Below, in pieces: positions 4,942 through 18,579 of a stretch of DNA of 19,170 nt. How positions within the stretch are numbered: position 1 is the first letter of the stretch; every line of letters starts with the position of its first letter. The notes under the pieces are model-generated. The model worked only from the letters and a program-made list of their open reading frames with translations. It was not told where the DNA came from and searched no databases. The stretch lies in assembly GCF_003334255.1 (NCBI RefSeq), contig NZ_QOWU01000071.1; one strand, given 5' to 3'. Both the position numbers and the translations under genes were made by a program. This DNA is from Escherichia coli. Lineage in GTDB: Bacteria; Pseudomonadota; Gammaproteobacteria; Enterobacterales; Enterobacteriaceae.

Positions 4942-5079
4942 CAGTTATGAGGGGTGGGCACGGTGCTGCGTTTGTGTGGTGTTTTTATTCCTGATGTCTT
5001 TTTGCTGTGGTTTCAGCGGTGAGGTTCGGGGCCCGCGCGTCAGCGTGGGAGGTGCATATCAGTCTGTCCACAGGACAGG

Positions 5080-5280
5080 CATTGAACAGGTTTTCTTTTT
5101 AAATGGAAGTAATTAAGTAGTTTAAAGGAAATACAGTACTGGAGTTTAAAAGAAACATTGCACCCTGTAACGCCTGCGGCTGGCGCTTTATAGCATTAAC
5201 GGTTGTAACCTTATGGAGAAGTCCCTTGCAGTTAAATGTGGATAAACAGAATTACCCGTCTGTGAGACGTGTTTTGCGTG
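5080..5280. promoter_or_regulatory. IncFII-type replication origin region (oriR) candidate
   Basis: AT-rich stretch at 5090-5160 and a consensus DnaA box TGTGGATAA at 5237-5245, about 175 bp downstream of the repA stop, the position of oriR in R1/R100-type replicons. Confidence 0.45.
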
Positions 5281-6293: not shown

Positions 6294-6370
6294 AAGCTGT
6301 CGCTTATGGCGGGCACAGAATGCCGTGCGTTAATGCACTGCAAGGGGTTGAATCTCTGACACGGTTTCAT
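6281..6370 (-). CDS. Leader-peptide ORF (29 codons) overlapping the repA start (tap/repA6-like)
   Basis: ATG at 6370-6368; stop TGA at 6283-6281 lies 10 nt inside repA, as in IncFII translational coupling. Peptide sequence itself not recognised. Confidence 0.4.
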
Positions 6371-6456
6371 ATATACTTATCCCGTATTCTGTGAGGCCCC
6401 CACTATCTTTCTTGAGCCCGCCAAAGTTCATCGAAAGATAGTGGGGGTTTTCCTTT
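6365..6456 (+). ncRNA. CopA-like antisense RNA (5' end uncertain)
   Basis: Plus-strand hairpin with 15-bp stem CCCCCACTATCTTTC/GAAAGATAGTGGGGG (6396-6447) followed by TTTTCCTTT; antisense to the tap start/RBS region. Possible -35 TTGAAT (6348-6353) and -10 TATACT (6372-6377). Confidence 0.45.
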
Positions 6457-7690: not shown

Positions 7691-7696
7691 CCCCAA

Positions 7697-7752
7697 TGCC
7701 CGGCACCGGTGACACCTGCGTGTACGGAGAGCGGCTGCCGGGCATTTTTTTT
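7697..7752 (+). terminator. Intrinsic terminator T2 (long hairpin with 9-bp closing stem) immediately upstream of the next RBS
   Basis: TGCCCGGCA ... TGCCGGGCA followed by eight T; ends 1 nt before the AGGA RBS of the gene at 7765. Confidence 0.5.
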
Positions 7753-7764
7753 CAGGACATCGTT

Positions 7765-8280
7765 ATGACCATTCAATCCCCGGAAAACCCTGTCATTCAG
7801 TTACTGGAGAATATGCTTGAAGCGCTCTCCACCTCCCCGGACAGCATCAACAATGAACGACGTCGCCGGCGCTTCCTGCTGAACTGGCTTGATTCCGCCC
7901 GACAGATGAGTGAGTTCAGGGGGATGCCTGAAGAGTTCACCGCCCTGCGCAAACTGCTGGCCACCAATACGGACATACCGGTAGAGAACACGCTGAAATC
8001 ACTGCTGGAAAGTGGCCACAACGCAGCACTGTATGACCTGTACCGCTTCCGAGCAGCGCTTGCCACGTGCAGGAGTCTGGGATGGCAGATTGGCACGTGC
8101 GCATGGAATGACCAGTTACTGAGTGAGACACTTTCCCGCGCACAGACCGGGAAACGTCATATCCTGCAGCTGAACAGCACCGGGGACACCTTTTCCACCA
8201 CGGGCAGAATGATCAGACCGGTGGCATTTTCATTAATCCATCCGGCCACCATCAACACGTCTGAGGTTGAAGAGATATGA
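7765..8280 (+). CDS. Hypothetical soluble protein (171 aa)
   Basis: ATG at 7765 with AGGA 8 nt upstream; longer ORF from 7696 rejected because its start lies inside terminator T2. ATGA overlap with the next gene. Confidence 0.6.
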   Translation: MTIQSPENPVIQLLENMLEALSTSPDSINNERRRRRFLLNWLDSARQMSEFRGMPEEFTALRKLLATNTDIPVENTLKSLLESGHNAALYDLYRFRAALATCRSLGWQIGTCAWNDQLLSETLSRAQTGKRHILQLNSTGDTFSTTGRMIRPVAFSLIHPATINTSEVEEI

Positions 8281-8810
8281 CCGGCATTGGTAACTGGATA
8301 GTCAGCGTGCTGATTGGATATGCTGCTGGCCCCCTGTGGGCTGCCACCCACCTGGGAACAAGCCAGGACCGGGGAAGCCGGGCCGCTTACGGTTACATCT
8401 ACCTGATAGACAGCATGATCAGACCGCTGGTGATGGTATTCGGGTTCTTTTTTGCATCGGTCTCCATCGTGGCCGGCGGCACCATTCTGAATGCGTTGTT
8501 TGGCGCGGCTCTGGTTAATGTGCAGGCGGACTCCCTTACGGGGTTATTCAGCATCGCTGGATTTTTGCTGATTTATGCCCGAGTCTGTACCACGCTGGTT
8601 GCGGCCGTTTTTGCGCTTCAGGCTTATCTGCCTGACCATGTGATTAATTTTCTGGGCGGACGTGACGGCGTTAATATGCTGGGGAATATGGCATCTTCGG
8701 TCAAAGATATTATTGCTGGCGGAAATACCAATATGCGCAGAACACCTGGCGTACGTGAAGAAAAACTGAAAAATATTAAAGGAGATGATAAAGACGGAAT
8801 AAAACAATAA
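8277..8810 (+). CDS. Hypothetical integral membrane protein (177 aa)
   Basis: Several hydrophobic segments (IVSVLIGYAAGPLWAA, LVMVFGFFFASVSIVAGGTILNALFGAAL, LFSIAGFLLIYARVCTTLVAAVFAL), hydrophilic lysine-rich tail; coupled to upstream gene. Confidence 0.6.
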   Translation: MTGIGNWIVSVLIGYAAGPLWAATHLGTSQDRGSRAAYGYIYLIDSMIRPLVMVFGFFFASVSIVAGGTILNALFGAALVNVQADSLTGLFSIAGFLLIYARVCTTLVAAVFALQAYLPDHVINFLGGRDGVNMLGNMASSVKDIIAGGNTNMRRTPGVREEKLKNIKGDDKDGIKQ

Positions 8811-10982: not shown

Positions 10983-11553
10983 CCAGAATAAATCCGGGTA
11001 AAAAAGGGCGCATTGAGGTCAGCCTTCGCAACAATCCGGCGGCAGATTCCCTGCCGCCGTGTTGCCCGTTAACGTTTAACTTCGTAGGCTAACGTTGCCA
11101 CAAGCACCGTATTTCCCTGCTCGATACGAAATCCGCAAAGCGAATCCCTCACCATCCAGACAAAACACAGTATCGTCACACAGAGGACAATTAACATTGT
11201 TAAAAACGTTCGTTGTAGCATCGCAGCCCCTCCATTGCCTTTCGGCCGTTATCGGGCTACTATAATGTTGTCTAGGCATTACAGTAGAGCCCTGGGTTGA
11301 TTGATAAAAAAATCGCCTGGGGCTTCTGCTACATGCCGTCCACAAAACGCTTTCGGCATACAGCCTCAAGCGCCCGCAGCTATTCTAATCGTTTTTCAGT
11401 CTGCCACAATCGTTTTCCATCTAATGACATGTAATGCGCAACGGTATTTTTACGGGAAACAACACGGCAAGGATTCCCGGAACACGTCCATTATTTTATG
11501 GTTACGGACATCATGTTAAATCAGAAAGTAATAATGACCTGAAAGGAAATGGT

Positions 11554-11888: not shown

Positions 11889-13436
11889 TTATTTTTCTGA
11901 TTCAGCATTTCCGGTCAGTACAGGCTCTTCTGGCAAAGACATTACCGGAACGTCACGTTCGCCATTGAATACAGAAACACTTTCGGTGAAACCATTCTGT
12001 AACAAAGAAAAACTTAACGGCAGATTTTTGGTTTGTATCCCTGTGATCCATTGAAAAATCTCGGGAAAACGACGGGCGCTGATATGCACATGATTGAGGC
12101 GGTGCTCAGTAATATCACTTGCCATCATCATGAGAGGCACATCGTATCCCGAACGCAAACCTGGCGCATGATGCACAGGGGTGCTGTCTGAACTGACGGA
12201 TTGCCCATGATCAGAAAAATACAGCATGGCAAAATCATCGCCATGCTCTGTCGTCATGTTATAAATTGCCTGAAGAAACCGATCCAGCTTAAGCAATGTT
12301 GATAAATAACAGGATACTTTATTTCCGAATAATTCCCTGAACGGCTGTGCATCATTAAAAAGTCTGTCACAGGGATTAGGATGGGATCCCAGCATATGAA
12401 TGAAAATCACTTTTGGAGAAGACGAATTAACAGCTTCCCTGACATACTGAAGCATATCTTCATCATCAATGCGACGGGAAGAAGAGTTCCCTTCCTTAAG
12501 AAAATATTTCTTATCCGCACTGGCGGCGATGACAGAAATCAGCGTATCATGTCGCCCTAAAGAGCCCTGATTTGATATCCACCACGTTTCATATCCGGCT
12601 TTTCTGGCAAGCGTAACAATATTATTACCCGGATTACCTGTTTCAGTGTAATCAAGAGTCAGTGTTCTGCTGAGTGAACCTGTCGTATTCGGAGCAGCGG
12701 AGAAATACCCATTAATAAATATACCCGGAGCAGAGTTCAGCCATGGTGTTGTCGGCAAAGGATACCCATAAACAGAAAGATAATCCCGTCTGACACTTTC
12801 ACCAATTACGATAATTATAGTTTTATATTTCTTCTCCACACTCACAATATCCCATGAGTCTTTCTGATTGTTTTTCAGCGATTCATATCGCATCATTTCT
12901 TCTCTGGTTTCAGCTATCCCCGTTATTACATTCGTAACCATACGTTTTGGCCATGCATTTACTGACAATACGATAAAGAACAACAGAAAGATAAATCCCC
13001 GGTGGCTTTTTTCACGCTTACGCCAGAACCAGAATGTAAAAGCAGCAATGACCAGTGAAACAATAAAATAAAAAACAGGTATGCCTGTGATAAATTCACC
13101 TGCCTCATTTATATTTGTCTGCATTACAGACGCAATAAAACTGTTGTTTATTTTTCCGTAAATCATTCCAACCGGAGCATAGAATGCACTTAACAAAAGA
13201 AAGATACAGACACACGTCGCTGAAATAACATTCCGCCGCCCCAACGACATCATCAGGAACAATATAAGTACATTCCCTGTGGCGTTTTTCACTGTATATC
13301 CGCAGCACCATGTAACAAGTACAGAAAACAACAGATAAATCAGTGACTCTTTACACCACAACATAAAATAAAACTGTTTTGCCATCTCAAAAGCACATTT
13401 GGATTTTTCTTTAATACGAGACACGCCAGTCATTTT
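11889..13436 (-). CDS. Phosphoethanolamine-transferase-like membrane enzyme (sulfatase/alkaline-phosphatase superfamily, EptA/MCR/OpgE-like); start uncertain
   Basis: N-terminal hydrophobic helices followed by a catalytic domain with IIIVIGESVRRDYLSVYGYP, KVIFIHMLGSHPNP and AMLYFSDHGQS, resembling the VVGETARADHVSFNGY / MLHQMGNHGP / MLYVSDHGES blocks of MCR/EptA. AT-rich. ORF open to 13445 (TTG); first ATG at 13436. Confidence 0.75.
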   Translation of the reverse strand, partial: KMTGVSRIKEKSKCAFEMAKQFYFMLWCKESLIYLLFSVLVTWCCGYTVKNATGNVLILFLMMSLGRRNVISATCVCIFLLLSAFYAPVGMIYGKINNSFIASVMQTNINEAGEFITGIPVFYFIVSLVIAAFTFWFWRKREKSHRGFIFLLFFIVLSVNAWPKRMVTNVITGIAETREEMMRYESLKNNQKDSWDIVSVEKKYKTIIIVIGESVRRDYLSVYGYPLPTTPWLNSAPGIFINGYFSAAPNTTGSLSRTLTLDYTETGNPGNNIVTLARKAGYETWWISNQGSLGRHDTLISVIAASADKKYFLKEGNSSSRRIDDEDMLQYVREAVNSSSPKVIFIHMLGSHPNPCDRLFNDAQPFRELFGNKVSCYLSTLLKLDRFLQAIYNMTTEHGDDFAMLYFSDHGQSVSSDSTPVHHAPGLRSGYDVPLMMMASDITEHRLNHVHISARRFPEIFQWITGIQTKNLPLSFSLLQNGFTESVSVFNGERDVPVMSLPEEPVLTGNAESEK

Positions 13437-13591
13437 CCTGTACAAAAACAGACAATCATTTCAACGCATGGATATTTATATGAAACAGCTCACAAAAATA
13501 CCCTGCTCTGTCTAGCAAGATTACATATTATCAGGTTTTGTGTTTACAGCAACTGCTCCCCGGACCAGATTATTCGCATAACCCGATGAAT

Positions 13592-14166: not shown

Positions 14167-14847
14167 TTAAAGTGTGTAGGCAGAAACCAGTCTGGTGGTT
14201 CCGGTCAGGGTGTCTGATACCTCAACTTCCCGGGTGACTATCACCATACCTGACTGACGCAGTCTCTGCACATCAGCTGCAATTCGCTGAGTTCCCGGCC
14301 AGAACAGACCATCCAGCGCGGTGACAATTAACCCGCTTTCCAGCGCCAGTTTCAGCCGTGCTGTCGGGGCTTTAACCTGCCCGGCGATATCAGTGAAACA
14401 ACGCGTCGTCATGCCATAGCTGTCCACCCGCCGTATTCGCGTCGCAAGACTGTAGCTGAAGCAATCCGGCACGCCGGATAAGTCATTCTGCAGACTGTAT
14501 ACACATCCCCGCTGCCGCCCATTGAACAGGACTTTTTTCTGGCTGAGCAGCCATTCCCGCCGCAGGCTGTCAATCATCTGCGGGGTCCGCGTTAACAGCA
14601 GACGAAACGGCAGCTCAAAACTGGTCACATAATCAACATTAAGTAAGGCTGTCCGCAGCCGTTCCCTGGCACCTGCTCCGGTATCACGGCATTCACGCAT
14701 GACATCTTCCCACTGGCGCATCAGTTGCGGAGACTTATGCCTGGCCCTGAACTGATATTTCTCAATCTGATAATCAATATATTCCTGCATACCGTCACCG
14801 GATATCTGTTGCCGTCTCATCACGGATATCAGCGTACTGGAATTCAT
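14167..14847 (-). CDS. Hypothetical protein (226 aa)
   Basis: Long ORF with GC content above its neighbours; divergent from the nuclease gene. No family recognised. Confidence 0.55.
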   Translation of the reverse strand: MNSSTLISVMRRQQISGDGMQEYIDYQIEKYQFRARHKSPQLMRQWEDVMRECRDTGAGARERLRTALLNVDYVTSFELPFRLLLTRTPQMIDSLRREWLLSQKKVLFNGRQRGCVYSLQNDLSGVPDCFSYSLATRIRRVDSYGMTTRCFTDIAGQVKAPTARLKLALESGLIVTALDGLFWPGTQRIAADVQRLRQSGMVIVTREVEVSDTLTGTTRLVSAYTL

Positions 14848-15436: not shown

Positions 15437-16104
15437 GATATCTCACAGGAATATATTTCCTGCCGTTTTATTTCCCCTGTTAGTCTCCAGCGGGAAATAA
15501 CATCCAGAAGTTACACTGATATGAATAATAAACCTGTTCAATGTGTCCGTCACTAAAGTGAACTCAGCCCCTTATGGAAAATATTGTAAATGATGGATGA
15601 ATGCTGAATACATTTCCCGGGGAGTGGCAGAAACAGATAAGTTGATGTCTGACTCAGAAGAAAATACGCCTGTAGCGCCCTGCATTTCATAACATTTCTG
15701 TTACAGCAACAACGAAAGCCGACAGTAATGCCGGGCTTTTACGTCCACATGCATATTCCACTTATCCGGAATTGTGACACAGCACCTGAATACAGGATTG
15801 ATCACCGGTGCCCACAAATGGCACATTTTCAGTAAGATTCCGAATGTTACATTACCCCGTCATGTGTGACGCAGTTGTCACCGGGAAAGAAACAGAAAGC
15901 ACATGAAAAACATAAAAACTCACACAGGACTCCTTATCCACAAAGAACAAACACGACGCGTTCGTCTTCATGAAACACCGGCCGCCTGGTGCCTCACACA
16001 CCGGGAATGCTACAGCAAAACAACCGGTCGCCGCTGCGGCAGCCCTGACAGTCTCAGCAGGCTGATTCTGAGCAGCATTCAGCCCATAGAATGAGATAAC
16101 CCGT

Positions 16105-16470
16105 ATGAATGATGACAGACAGACGCCTCCGGCACCCGATGCATGGAAAATCCGATTTCTGGCTGACGGTACACCCGGCACATGGTTTTACACCGATGAC
16201 GCAGCCGTCACAAAAGAGTGGCTGCGGGCACATTGTGACGATGTGGAAGTGATCCCCCTGTGCCGTATGCATGACGGTCCCGTTTTCCGGGAACACCATA
16301 TTAATGAACTCAGCGCCGCACTGGCCAGAATGCTCCATATGCACCACATACTGCTGGAACGAACCCGGTACAGAGAAAATATCCATGATGCAGAATGTAT
16401 TCGTGAAATTCACGAAGCTCCCCTGCAGGCTATCGGCATCCTGGAAAAATACAAACGCACAAAATCATAA
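16105..16470 (+). CDS. Hypothetical protein (121 aa)
   Basis: First gene of a compact three-gene plus-strand cluster; no family recognised. Confidence 0.45.
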   Translation: MNDDRQTPPAPDAWKIRFLADGTPGTWFYTDDAAVTKEWLRAHCDDVEVIPLCRMHDGPVFREHHINELSAALARMLHMHHILLERTRYRENIHDAECIREIHEAPLQAIGILEKYKRTKS

Positions 16471-16479
16471 GGCTGTTCT

Positions 16480-16671
16480 ATGTGGATACTGATTTTCTGG
16501 CTCTCATCCCCCTTTAATGTCTCCTCCGGCGATGCCCGGCAACCCACACTGGCCGTTCACAGTCAGGAGTTCCGTACTGAAAAAGCCTGTCGGGATGCCT
16601 TCACCGCGCTGAAAAAAGAAAACGTGGGAGAATTTGCTCTCCGGGGCGTCTGCGTCCCCGGCGGAGAATAA
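16480..16671 (+). CDS. Hypothetical small protein (63 aa) with hydrophobic N-terminus
   Basis: AAGG 9 nt upstream; MWILIFWLSSPF... could be a signal or anchor segment. Confidence 0.4.
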   Translation: MWILIFWLSSPFNVSSGDARQPTLAVHSQEFRTEKACRDAFTALKKENVGEFALRGVCVPGGE

Positions 16672-16704
16672 ACCGGAGATGATGATTATCCACAGGAGTA
16701 TTCA

Positions 16705-17028
16705 ATGGCATACCATCCCCCGGATGTCACACGGCATTATCCTTATCTGCGCCGGATGTCCTGGGCGCAGATAACGGCAGCAGCTGAAGATGCGGAAATA
16801 CATCATGATTATGCCCGGGCATTAATATTGTGGCAGCATGCATATCATGCTGCCACGTTGACCATTAACAAAAACCTGGCAACCGCTAAAATCCACTTCT
16901 GTGCTAAACGCCTTCAGATACGTGAACAAATGAGCAGGATAATCCGGAATACTGGCACAGACGAAATACTCTTCCGTCTGAGTAAACACCATCATTTATA
17001 TGAGAAAAAGAAAACAAAAGAGGGGTGA
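16705..17028 (+). CDS. Small helical protein (107 aa), possibly ANR-like (AraC negative regulator family); tentative
   Basis: AGGAG RBS 8 nt upstream; the ...YARALILWQHAYHAA...FCAKRL... pattern resembles ANR-family proteins as I recall them. Not verified. Confidence 0.45.
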   Translation: MAYHPPDVTRHYPYLRRMSWAQITAAAEDAEIHHDYARALILWQHAYHAATLTINKNLATAKIHFCAKRLQIREQMSRIIRNTGTDEILFRLSKHHHLYEKKKTKEG

Positions 17029-17176
17029 GGGTGAGAAACCCCTTGTATGGGAAAAACTTGCCATGCTCACTGCAGGTGCATTTTTGATACTGGCAATCCT
17101 GGGTGAGTAATCTTAATATCCTGTTTATTAAAGGGCAGAAGGCGGTGCCCCTCTGCCCTTAAGTACGTTTCCGGGA

Positions 17177-17287
17177 TTATCTGTCAACCAGTTCCCGGAT
17201 CAGCTCCAGGATAGCTATCACTGCATTGGCCACAGCAACAACAGCCCTGAGAACGATGATTAACAGGTTAATCATCCGCTTCTCCAT
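17177..17287 (-). CDS. Type I toxin-like small hydrophobic peptide, copy A (36 aa; 32 aa if started at second ATG)
   Basis: MEKRMINLLIIVLRAVVAVANAVIAILELIRELVDR; GGAG lies 7 nt upstream of the second ATG (17275). Copy B differs almost only at synonymous sites. Confidence 0.6.
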   Translation of the reverse strand: MEKRMINLLIIVLRAVVAVANAVIAILELIRELVDR

Positions 17288-17534
17288 CAATGGAGAAAGA
17301 ACGCCGTGGTTTGCCCTTACATTGCCTGTCGCCACGTTTTCTATAGTGTCAGTTATAGACAGTTCTTCTCCGGCCAGAGCACCAAAACCAGCACCACCTG
17401 ATGTTTTGGCCAGGACTTGCAATCTGTTCATCCCTGGAACGATATGCCGGAAAGAACGTACCTCAAGGCTGACACACCGAGTATATACTTATACGATGCT
17501 TGCAGAAATATTATTTCAGCCGTATTATTTCATA

Positions 17535-17621: not shown

Positions 17622-17878
17622 ACATCTGTATATATCTGCTCCGGACTGCGCCCTGAGTCTCCCGTTGAAAATTGCCTTTTGAATTTTACGAAATACGGCA
17701 AATGGTGGATGGATGTCGAATATATTTCCAGGGGAGTTCCGGGGAAAAGCCGGCTCATGTTTGACTCACGGGAACAGACGCTGGAAGTGCAGAAAGATTT
17801 TCGATTTTTAACCTGAGCATATTTTGTTAAAGGGCAGAAGACGGTGACCCTCTGCCCTTAAGTACGTTTCCGGGATTA

Positions 17879-17986
17879 TCAGTCAACCAGTTCCCGGATC
17901 AGTTCCAGGAGAGCTATCACTGCGTTAGCCACAGCAACAACCGCCCTGAGAACGATGATTAACAGGTTAATCATCCGTTTCTCCAT
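17879..17986 (-). CDS. Type I toxin-like small hydrophobic peptide, copy B (35 aa)
   Basis: MEKRMINLLIIVLRAVVAVANAVIALLELIRELVD; versus copy A five synonymous changes, one I-to-L change and loss of the terminal Arg. Confidence 0.55.
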   Translation of the reverse strand: MEKRMINLLIIVLRAVVAVANAVIALLELIRELVD

Positions 17987-18279
17987 CAATGGAGGAAATC
18001 ACTGTTGTTTACTCTTACATTGCCTGTCACAACAGCTCTTTCATTGTTAGCTGAAAAGAGACTTCCTCCGGCCAGAGCACCAGACGCAGCACCACCTGTT
18101 TGTCTGGCCAGGTCTTTGAATAGCACAGATCCATAGTCCCGATGGATTGATGCGAAGGTAAGTCTCCAGACAAGGCTAACTTGCTGATTATACTTGTTTC
18201 AGGCGATATCGCTACTCCCGGAACAATAGACTGTAACGAACAGATTGCGATCAGGTGAATATAACGATATTCTGGTAAC

Positions 18280-18366
18280 GTTAGTTGAAAAGAGACTTCC
18301 TCCGGGCCAGAGCCACCAACTCTCCCTGGGATCGCAAAAAAGCCGGCCTCACCAGTCGGCTTTTTT
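18280..18366 (+). ncRNA. Candidate antitoxin small RNA, copy B
   Basis: Promoter-like TTGCGA-17 nt-TATTCT (18245-18273); terminator GCCGGC-CTCACCA-GTCGGC plus T-run (18341-18366). 18286-18305 is a direct repeat of 18052-18071 in the copy-B peptide leader. Confidence 0.35.
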
Positions 18367-18579
18367 GTGCCTGTCTCTCACCACCTTCTGCTGTTCCTGT
18401 GAAAATGCCCTGCTGAATTCATCCCTGCCCGGTCATTACCGGCGATTGTTCGTATTCATTCCACTCAGCCTCATCACGAAATTAATCCATTTATCTATGG
18501 AGGAATCCCCGTGTCTTACCAACAGACGTCTGCCAGTGAAGCACCAACAGAGATTTGGTATATCGTCGGTATCATATGC

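Follow-up and report, generated by a model that had tools for sequence, protein, structure and literature searches.

We analyzed a 19,170-nucleotide (nt) stretch of Escherichia coli DNA (contig NZ_QOWU01000071.1 of RefSeq assembly GCF_003334255.1; hereafter the window), which is a fragment of an I-complex (IncK2/Z) plasmid. Four short open reading frames (ORFs) follow one another on its plus strand, and the last of them, ORF4, encodes a divergent protein of the ANR superfamily, not a textbook member. The cluster is a conserved four-gene accessory unit of I-complex (IncK/IncK2/Z/IncI-gamma) plasmids of E. coli and Shigella. Our interpretation, which we hold at a probability of roughly 55%, is that the unit is an accessory operon whose last product would act on regulators of the host by protein-protein contact. 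The ORF list of the window, together with the AlphaFold model and the subfamily alignments of ORF4, gave the following features.

15903-16094, plus strand: ORF1, 63 amino acids (aa), isoelectric point (pI) 9.9
16105-16470, plus strand: ORF2, 121 aa
16480-16671, plus strand: ORF3, 63 aa
16705-17028, plus strand: ORF4, 107 aa, 12.7 kDa (12,659 Da), pI 9.8
16756-16914, plus strand: ANR-like three-helix core of ORF4, approximately residues 18-70
16915-17028, plus strand: basic C-terminal extension of ORF4, approximately residues 71-107, modelled as a helix with low confidence

An earlier note on this DNA had proposed that ORF4 may belong to the ANR family and had named the lack of a profile match as the outcome that would speak against it. 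A match was found, and it supports the proposal in the form of a divergent relationship. The top NCBIfam match of ORF4, and its only meaningful one, was NF033650 (ANR_neg_reg; E = 1.2e-6, 28.2 bits), with residues 24-70 aligned to positions 6-52 of the 54 in the model. The same model ranked first in NCBIfam for all 10 diverse members of the ORF4 subfamily that were searched, and it was the sole match for 9 of them. Two members, P0067 (41.1 bits) and P0075 (34.9 bits), exceeded the curated cutoff, and the other eight scored between 23.7 and 30.5 bits. Additional NCBIfam matches appeared in ORF4 and P0060 only, far under their respective cutoffs.

The sequences of Aar (plasmid pAA of strain 042, an enteroaggregative E. 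coli, EAEC) and of Cnr-1 and Cnr-2 (plasmid p948 of enterotoxigenic E. coli, ETEC, strain H10407) were taken via the coordinates in PMC4038620. When the subfamily alignment (A3) was compared with these three proteins by hhalign, the match had a probability of 88% (E = 3.1e-6) and spanned 54 gapless columns, covering residues 8-61 of the 63 in Aar. Pairwise BLASTP of ORF4 against Aar gave 12 identities in 44 positions (27%; E = 0.009). In the resulting gapless register, F7-C53 of Aar corresponds to W20-C66 of ORF4, and the published ANR signature (PROMALS3D consensus, with the highly conserved Cys; PMC4983702, PMC4038620) falls on ORF4 as follows.

Aromatic position 3: W20
A10: A27
E14: E31
A22: A39
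W26: W43
A29: A46
W43: L58
R47: K62
Conserved Cys: C66

Five of the seven signature residues are identical in ORF4 (A27, E31, A39, W43, and A46), and the conserved cysteine is kept (C66). Within the subfamily alignments A27, A39, W43, A46, N55, A59, and C66 are invariant; A27, A39, W43, A46, and C66 are so across 26 members.

Few proteins belong to the family: 30 were returned at E <= 1e-3 when 1.84 billion representatives were searched exhaustively with a profile. Word-index homology searches with ORF4 reached E. coli-type relatives only and no protein named ANR, and with P0067 as the query, tblastn against plasmids failed to retrieve canonical ANR genes. Pfam contained no match for ORF4 even at E <= 10. 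The PDB sequence search, run with ORF4 either as a single sequence or as a profile, returned nothing significant, the best matches being the TPR protein NrfG (E = 0.012) and the MIT domain of VPS4. No study of ANR-like genes carried by I-complex plasmids came up in our literature searches.

The AlphaFold2 model of ORF4 comprises helices at residues 20-32, 36-49, and 53-83. The predicted local distance difference test score (pLDDT) exceeds 90 for residues 11-70 and is low in the tail. ANRs are themselves described as predominantly alpha-helical, with three conserved helices (PMC4983702). When the model was searched against AFDB50 with Foldseek, the first ranks were taken by ORF4's own relatives, named "FlgM" or "Neurotensin receptor R8," and ranks 11-49 almost entirely by entries named "ANR family transcriptional regulator." About 35 of the 40 matches outside ORF4's own family carried an ANR annotation. 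The cores superimposed with root mean square deviations of 0.6-1.6 Å over 51-68 columns; the E-values were weak (0.06-0.4), as expected because the domain comprises only about 50 residues. Thus, the NCBIfam match, the scores of the relatives, the hhalign comparison, and the structure-model matches together identify ORF4 as a divergent ANR-superfamily protein. They also suggest that its subfamily constitutes a previously unrecognized, mis-annotated, and divergent branch of ANR-like proteins.

Several observations weigh against this assignment or against the activity that we attach to it. The 28.2 bits of ORF4 lie below the curated ANR_neg_reg cutoff of 32 bits. Two signature residues are replaced: the helix-3 tryptophan (W43 in the consensus, W45 in Aar) is L58 in ORF4 and Leu, Phe, or Tyr across the subfamily, and the signature arginine (R47 in the consensus, R49 in Aar) is K62. 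In Aar, mutation of E44-W45 abolished oligomerization and modification of W45 abolished activity (PMC4983702). With 107 aa and 12.7 kDa, ORF4 is larger than the classical ANRs of 63-65 aa and <10 kDa; the definition of the family specifies <10 kDa and 39-80 aa, with Aar/Cnr-type proteins at 63-65 aa (PMC4038620, PMC10148876). The fold is a small TPR/MIT-like helical unit, as the weak NrfG and VPS4 MIT matches illustrate, so structural similarity alone is weak evidence. The earlier note correctly stated that the window contains no AraC-family gene, and the annotation of CP055726.1, the closest plasmid (56 kb), shows none in its first 50 kb. The flanks of the ANR-like genes of six relatives likewise held no cognate AraC gene, though a chromosomal partner is possible. 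Finally, a consensus scan upstream of ORF1 found no sigma-70-like promoter.

What makes ORF4 larger is a basic tail of about 40 aa at its C-terminus; the ANR-like core measures about 50 aa. IncK2/Z-type plasmids conserve this tail, but pCT, an IncK plasmid, has unrelated sequence in its place, and Aar and the Cnr proteins lack it.

A three-gene operon had been claimed for this locus. The three ORFs concerned (ORF2 to ORF4) and the 9- and 33-nt gaps between them were given exactly, but the unit has four genes, ORF1 having been missed. The gaps between ORF1 and ORF2, ORF2 and ORF3, and ORF3 and ORF4 are 10, 9, and 33 nt, respectively. ORF4 has a strong Shine-Dalgarno sequence, AGGAG (within CAGGAG), 7 nt upstream, and ORF3 has AAGG; ORF1 is annotated in some relatives as WP_000789656.1. 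A consensus scan detected no plus-strand terminator-like site between the genes of the cluster. A LexA box was likewise absent near the operon, the sole nearby match being at the second of the two dqlB toxin genes downstream.

Plasmid pCT (NC_014477.1; locus L003), the epidemic blaCTX-M-14 plasmid, has the same four genes in the same order, with junctions that touch or overlap. Its ORF1 stop codon overlaps a possible ORF2 start (ATGA), ORF2 and ORF3 are 3 nt apart, and the ORF3 stop codon overlaps the ORF4 start (ATGA), which follows a GGAGGAGG Shine-Dalgarno sequence. The genes therefore show the usual marks of an operon: one strand, short or overlapping junctions, a preserved order, and no internal terminator. 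From this spacing and synteny we infer, on good grounds, that ORF1-ORF4 are co-transcribed. This four-gene arrangement is confined to I-complex plasmids and their derivative elements.

A 1.3-kb region around the cluster matched 548 plasmid records, 474 from Escherichia and 59 from Shigella, with 462 predicted to be conjugative; five records were 99.7% identical to it. To measure selection, the four genes were extracted from five relatives and each was compared with the window by the Nei-Gojobori method, yielding the ratio of nonsynonymous (dN) to synonymous (dS) substitutions. Every frame of ORF1-ORF4 was intact in all five relatives, and dS against pCT was above 1 (saturated). The dN/dS ratio was 0.06-0.12 for ORF1, 0.15-0.17 for ORF2, 0-0.15 for ORF3, and 0.13-0.53 for ORF4. 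Thus, with intact frames and dN/dS well below 1 even where dS is saturated, ORF1-ORF4 are real protein-coding genes.

The first three products offer little that is familiar. ORF1 matched phrog_7520 (E = 6e-19), phrog_5148, and phrog_1226, PHROGs of unknown function, and tblastn located relatives of it in 104 phage records, where they usually sit with the small genes of the early (or "ea") region of the lambdoid type. The family of ORF1 is thus one of small proteins that are frequent in the early/accessory regions of lambdoid phages; a PDB search with ORF1 gave a weak endonuclease I match only (E = 0.028). ORF2 belongs to no recognizable family; the relatives found for it are all E. coli sequences, chiefly I-complex plasmids and islands derived from these, and its AlphaFold model is unreliable (pLDDT 47). 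ORF3 belongs to phrog_3766 (E = 8e-13) and has a strongly conserved hydrophobic N-terminus (MWILIFWLSSPF) and two conserved cysteines, both of which it shares with a 56-aa homologue in the accessory region of a Klebsiella phage. Neither ORF2 nor ORF4 had a match among phages by tblastn. None of the four proteins matched Pfam, and PADLOC returned nothing for any of them. ORF2 and ORF3, the two products that the earlier note had called unrecognized, remain so, with no match in Pfam, NCBIfam, or PADLOC.

ORF4 shares a homologous three-helix core with Aar, Cnr-1, Cnr-2, and Rnr, the last from enteropathogenic E. coli (EPEC) and Citrobacter rodentium, and like aar and cnr it is carried by a mobile element in enteric bacteria. 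Aar binds AggR, in its central region, and other AraC members, and it prevents DNA binding (PMC4983702). H-NS and Ler are bound as well, by both Aar and Rnr, which modulate silencing (PMC5570504, PMC10148876). Although Rnr and Aar share just 25% identity, they are interchangeable (PMC10148876), and the divergence between ORF4 and Aar (about 27% identity) is comparable to that of this functional protein. The settings differ: aar and cnr lie near aggR and cfaD/rns, whereas ORF4 has no AraC/XylS gene beside it, and classical ANR genes are solitary with a promoter of their own, whereas ORF4 is the last gene of a predicted multi-gene operon.

Another parallel is EcCIMP1_025, a PerC-like or putative ANR-like repressor on an E. 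coli phage-inducible chromosomal island, for which action on host virulence regulation is proposed and repression of the locus of enterocyte effacement (LEE) has experimental evidence (PMC11773190). Like ORF4, it is a small ANR-like protein on a mobile element without a cognate AraC activator, the two being likened by description only. Unlike this PerC-like protein, ORF4 has no PerC Pfam match, and it is known from sequence alone. Hha/YmoA-type modulators of H-NS are small helical proteins of conjugative plasmids that bind a nucleoid-associated regulator rather than DNA. With ORF4 they would share a functional analogy at most; no homology to them was detected, and no Hha model matched ORF4 in Pfam or NCBIfam.

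By analogy with these proteins, ORF4 most likely would not bind DNA itself and would instead contact other transcription regulators. Its targets may be AraC/XylS activators and/or H-NS-family silencers; they would be encoded by the host, because AraC-family genes are missing from the window and from the first 50 kb of the closest plasmid. Through ORF4 the plasmid would gain a handle on host or plasmid gene expression, and the basic C-terminal tail might add specificity. A more far-reaching version of this proposal, which we regard as doubtful, is that I-complex conjugative plasmids, like the SPATE-carrying islands that descend from them, use an orphan ANR-like anti-regulator, encoded in a dedicated four- or five-gene operon, to reprogram host transcription without an AraC partner. 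For example, H-NS-family silencers could be titrated, de-repressing the adjacent trbABC genes or plasmid cargo. Alternatively, chromosomal AraC-type regulators, for instance GadX, VirF, or PerA, could be damped in E. coli and Shigella hosts. The basic tail and ORF1-3 would then provide new partner specificity.

Members of the subfamily outside I-complex plasmids were found in the following contexts.

P0067: region of an F-type type IV secretion system
P0094: chromosomal site near fimbrial genes
P0064: beside IS66 and hlyCA
P0075: plasmid with an ArdC-type protein
P0004: chromosomal islands, behind a SPATE autotransporter

The contexts are varied and mobile, and several of these members (P0067, P0094, P0064, and P0075) occur as single genes without ORF1-3; the ANR-like domain is therefore not obligatorily tied to those genes. 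This bears on the main rival to our interpretation, in which ORF4 is an ANR-fold adaptor for a plasmid-encoded partner (ORF1-3, the transfer activators TraB/TraC, or a component of the dqlB module) and the operon has a plasmid-specific role, such as transfer control, establishment, or anti-defense, unrelated to AraC or H-NS. ORF2-ORF4 remain linked across I-complex plasmids and derived chromosomal islands (ORF3 apparently being truncated in one island), ORF3 and ORF4 are translationally coupled in pCT, the cluster is fixed upstream of dqlB and trbABC, and no AraC gene is nearby, all of which this explanation would accommodate. It would also suit the occurrence of the ORF1 and ORF3 families in phage early/accessory regions, which often carry genes for host takeover. 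However, the single-gene relatives indicate that the domain does not need such partners, PADLOC did not recognize the cluster proteins, and gene order combined with the established direction of IncI transfer places the cluster outside the leading region. We consider a plasmid-encoded partner improbable.

The resemblance to ANRs might also be convergent, ORF4 being a generic TPR-like helical hairpin that is unrelated to Aar in evolution and in function. The weak profile matches to NrfG and the VPS4 MIT domain, the modest Foldseek E-values, and the subthreshold score of ORF4 would all be consistent with convergence. Such an origin would leave unexplained why ANR was the top NCBIfam family in all 11 proteins tested (the sole one in 9, with two relatives above the cutoff), why the gapless, full-length register with Aar keeps the conserved Ala, Trp, Ala, and Cys positions, and why ANR annotations dominate the structural matches outside the family; we judge it quite unlikely. 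Less probable again is that the spacer between the toxin modules is junk and that ORF1-ORF4 are merely chance or decaying frames in it. Degenerate copies of a dqlB-module gene do flank the region, and the upstream scan did not find a promoter, but the selection analysis already contradicts this explanation: each relative that was examined has all four frames intact, with dS reaching more than 1 and dN/dS well below 1, and the ORF4 subfamily has conserved invariant residues. The public name of ORF4 fares worst. ORF4 is recorded as "flagellar biosynthesis protein FlgM" or as "hypothetical," and the FlgM-type anti-sigma-28 factor that the name implies is backed by its propagation in NCBI and UniProt records only. 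No FlgM model matched in Pfam (E <= 10) or NCBIfam (E <= 1), the ORF4 model is a compact three-helix bundle, flagellar genes are absent from the window and the closest plasmid, and sister clusters bear another plainly spurious name, "Neurotensin receptor R8." The FlgM identity is effectively refuted.

A possible source of the label, or a partner for the protein, was sought in pCT_066, a "putative sigma factor." This is a gene in its own right, lying on the far side of hok about 1 kb upstream of the pCT cluster. Its current annotation is TnsA-like, and the window lacks it; it was rejected. The ANR-like gene of pCT itself (4998-5249, 83 aa) is unannotated in the RefSeq record.

In enteric pathogens, ANR proteins are known to restrain AraC-type virulence activators and to modulate H-NS. 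Our results suggest that an ANR-like subfamily is fixed in a backbone-adjacent accessory region of hundreds of IncK/IncK2/Z/IncI-gamma plasmids, many of them from Shiga toxin-producing E. coli (STEC) or Shigella. Should the protein be functional, it could allow resistance and virulence plasmids that are widely spread to change regulatory networks of the host, among them those for virulence, acid resistance, and silencing by H-NS. In practice the gain is modest but concrete: the names "FlgM" and "Neurotensin receptor R8" ought to be replaced, the pCT RefSeq record lacks the gene, and the operon comprises four genes.

Genes of the ORF4 type also travel with SPATE autotransporter cargo. In several plasmids and chromosomal islands (L017, L018, and L027-L029), a SPATE serine-protease autotransporter (EpeA-like) lies directly upstream of ORF2-ORF4; in one chromosomal island ORF3 appears to be truncated to 43 aa.

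In intact plasmids, the cluster has the exclusion/cargo region on one side and, on the other, the dqlB-agrB type I toxin module, after which trbABC follow. Relatives L002, L017, and L018 illustrate this order: trbA-trbB-trbC, on the plus strand, follow a minus-strand dqlB, and the cluster is directly upstream of that dqlB. In the window, the thermonuclease and its neighbors are followed by the four-gene cluster, two dqlB toxins, and an IS3 element, which stands where the trb genes would be. The "tandem toxin modules" that had been placed just downstream of the operon are these two dqlB genes, each accompanied by an AgrB-like antisense RNA. The features downstream of ORF4 are listed below, with RefSeq coordinates for dqlB, Rfam coordinates for the RNAs, and the ORF list as the source of the small ORF.

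17000-17110, plus strand: candidate fifth ORF, 36 aa, overlapping the last 29 nt of ORF4 in another frame
17131-17160, no strand assigned: strong GC-rich hairpin between the convergent ORF4 and dqlB, from sequence and folding; no U-run on the plus strand
17177-17275, minus strand: first copy of dqlB (DinQ-like toxin), convergent with ORF4 and 148 nt past its stop codon
17536-17623, plus strand: AgrB-like antisense RNA of the first module
17879-17974, minus strand: second copy of dqlB
18281-18368, plus strand: AgrB-like antisense RNA of the second module

The dqlB product matched the NCBIfam model DinQ_rel with 62.5 bits, and the two DinQ-like type I toxin modules are complete, lying within a direct tandem repeat of about 700 bp. 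The hairpin is inside the repeated module (repeat D1, 17124-17298 and 17823-17997) and possibly forms a shared transcript end of ORF4 and dqlB. A LexA-box-like site, CTGT-N9-CAG, is present at 18096-18111, near the second dqlB copy; it resembles the SOS box that has reportedly been described for dqlB of the IncI1 plasmid pTF2.

The 36-aa ORF, MRKRKQKRGEGEKPLVWEKLAMLTAGAFLILAILGE, combines a basic N-terminus (MRKRKQKR...) with a hydrophobic stretch, LAMLTAGAFLILAILG, at its C-terminus, and it had no NCBIfam match. It is open and nearly identical in three IncK2/Z-type relatives, with too few substitutions for a selection test. Being absent from pCT and present in the IncK2/Z-type plasmids, it co-occurs with the C-terminal tail of ORF4. 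It might encode a small membrane peptide, as a fifth gene of the unit, or be a by-product of conserved DNA.

The remaining genes of the window are an IncFII-type RepA with a PK-repZ pseudoknot, an RfaH/NusG-like TraB, TraC, a C-terminal TraY/DotA fragment, ExcA, a DUF1778-GNAT toxin-antitoxin pair, hok/sok, a phosphoethanolamine transferase, a DUF2569 protein, an ECs1377-family protein, and a thermonuclease. Those with specific placements are as follows.

6306-6455, minus strand: PK-repZ regulatory pseudoknot upstream of repA (Rfam, 162 bits)
11219-11375, minus strand: sok antitoxin RNA of the hok/sok module (Rfam, 116 bits)
11889-13445, minus strand: 518-aa phosphoethanolamine transferase, annotated as a lipid A phosphoethanolamine transferase in CP055726.1 and adjoining the DUF2569 membrane protein

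The transferase was not flagged as a resistance gene in the plasmid records examined. A TraC-like ORF (7696-8280) abuts an ORF (8277-8810) whose match to DotA/TraY is confined to the last ~130 residues of the latter, and ExcA comes next; the whole pil/tra block from traC to the end of traY appears to be deleted in the window (7696-8810). Such a deletion is consistent with the typing of the closest plasmids as "mobilizable" rather than conjugative.

The ECs1377-family protein (14167-14847, minus strand) is labelled "helix-turn-helix domain-containing" or "DNA-binding protein" and is a candidate regulator. In the window its gene is separated from the cluster by the nuclease gene; in pCT the corresponding gene (L003, 5199-5822, minus strand) is convergent with the ANR-like gene and immediately downstream of it.

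The gene HTE32_RS00140 ("140") of pTF2, which is reportedly SOS induced, occupies the equivalent position next to dqlB in IncI1. We considered its product as a counterpart of the cluster and rejected it, as it is unrelated to ORF1-4. Fragments resembling its C-terminus (...GKWWIDVEYISWGVPGKTRLMFESKEQALEV...) are present on the plus strand at ~17650-17816, between the dqlB copies, and, in a degenerate form, at 15597-15692, upstream of ORF1. Because these fragments flank it, the four-gene cluster seems to sit within an array of decayed dqlB-type modules.

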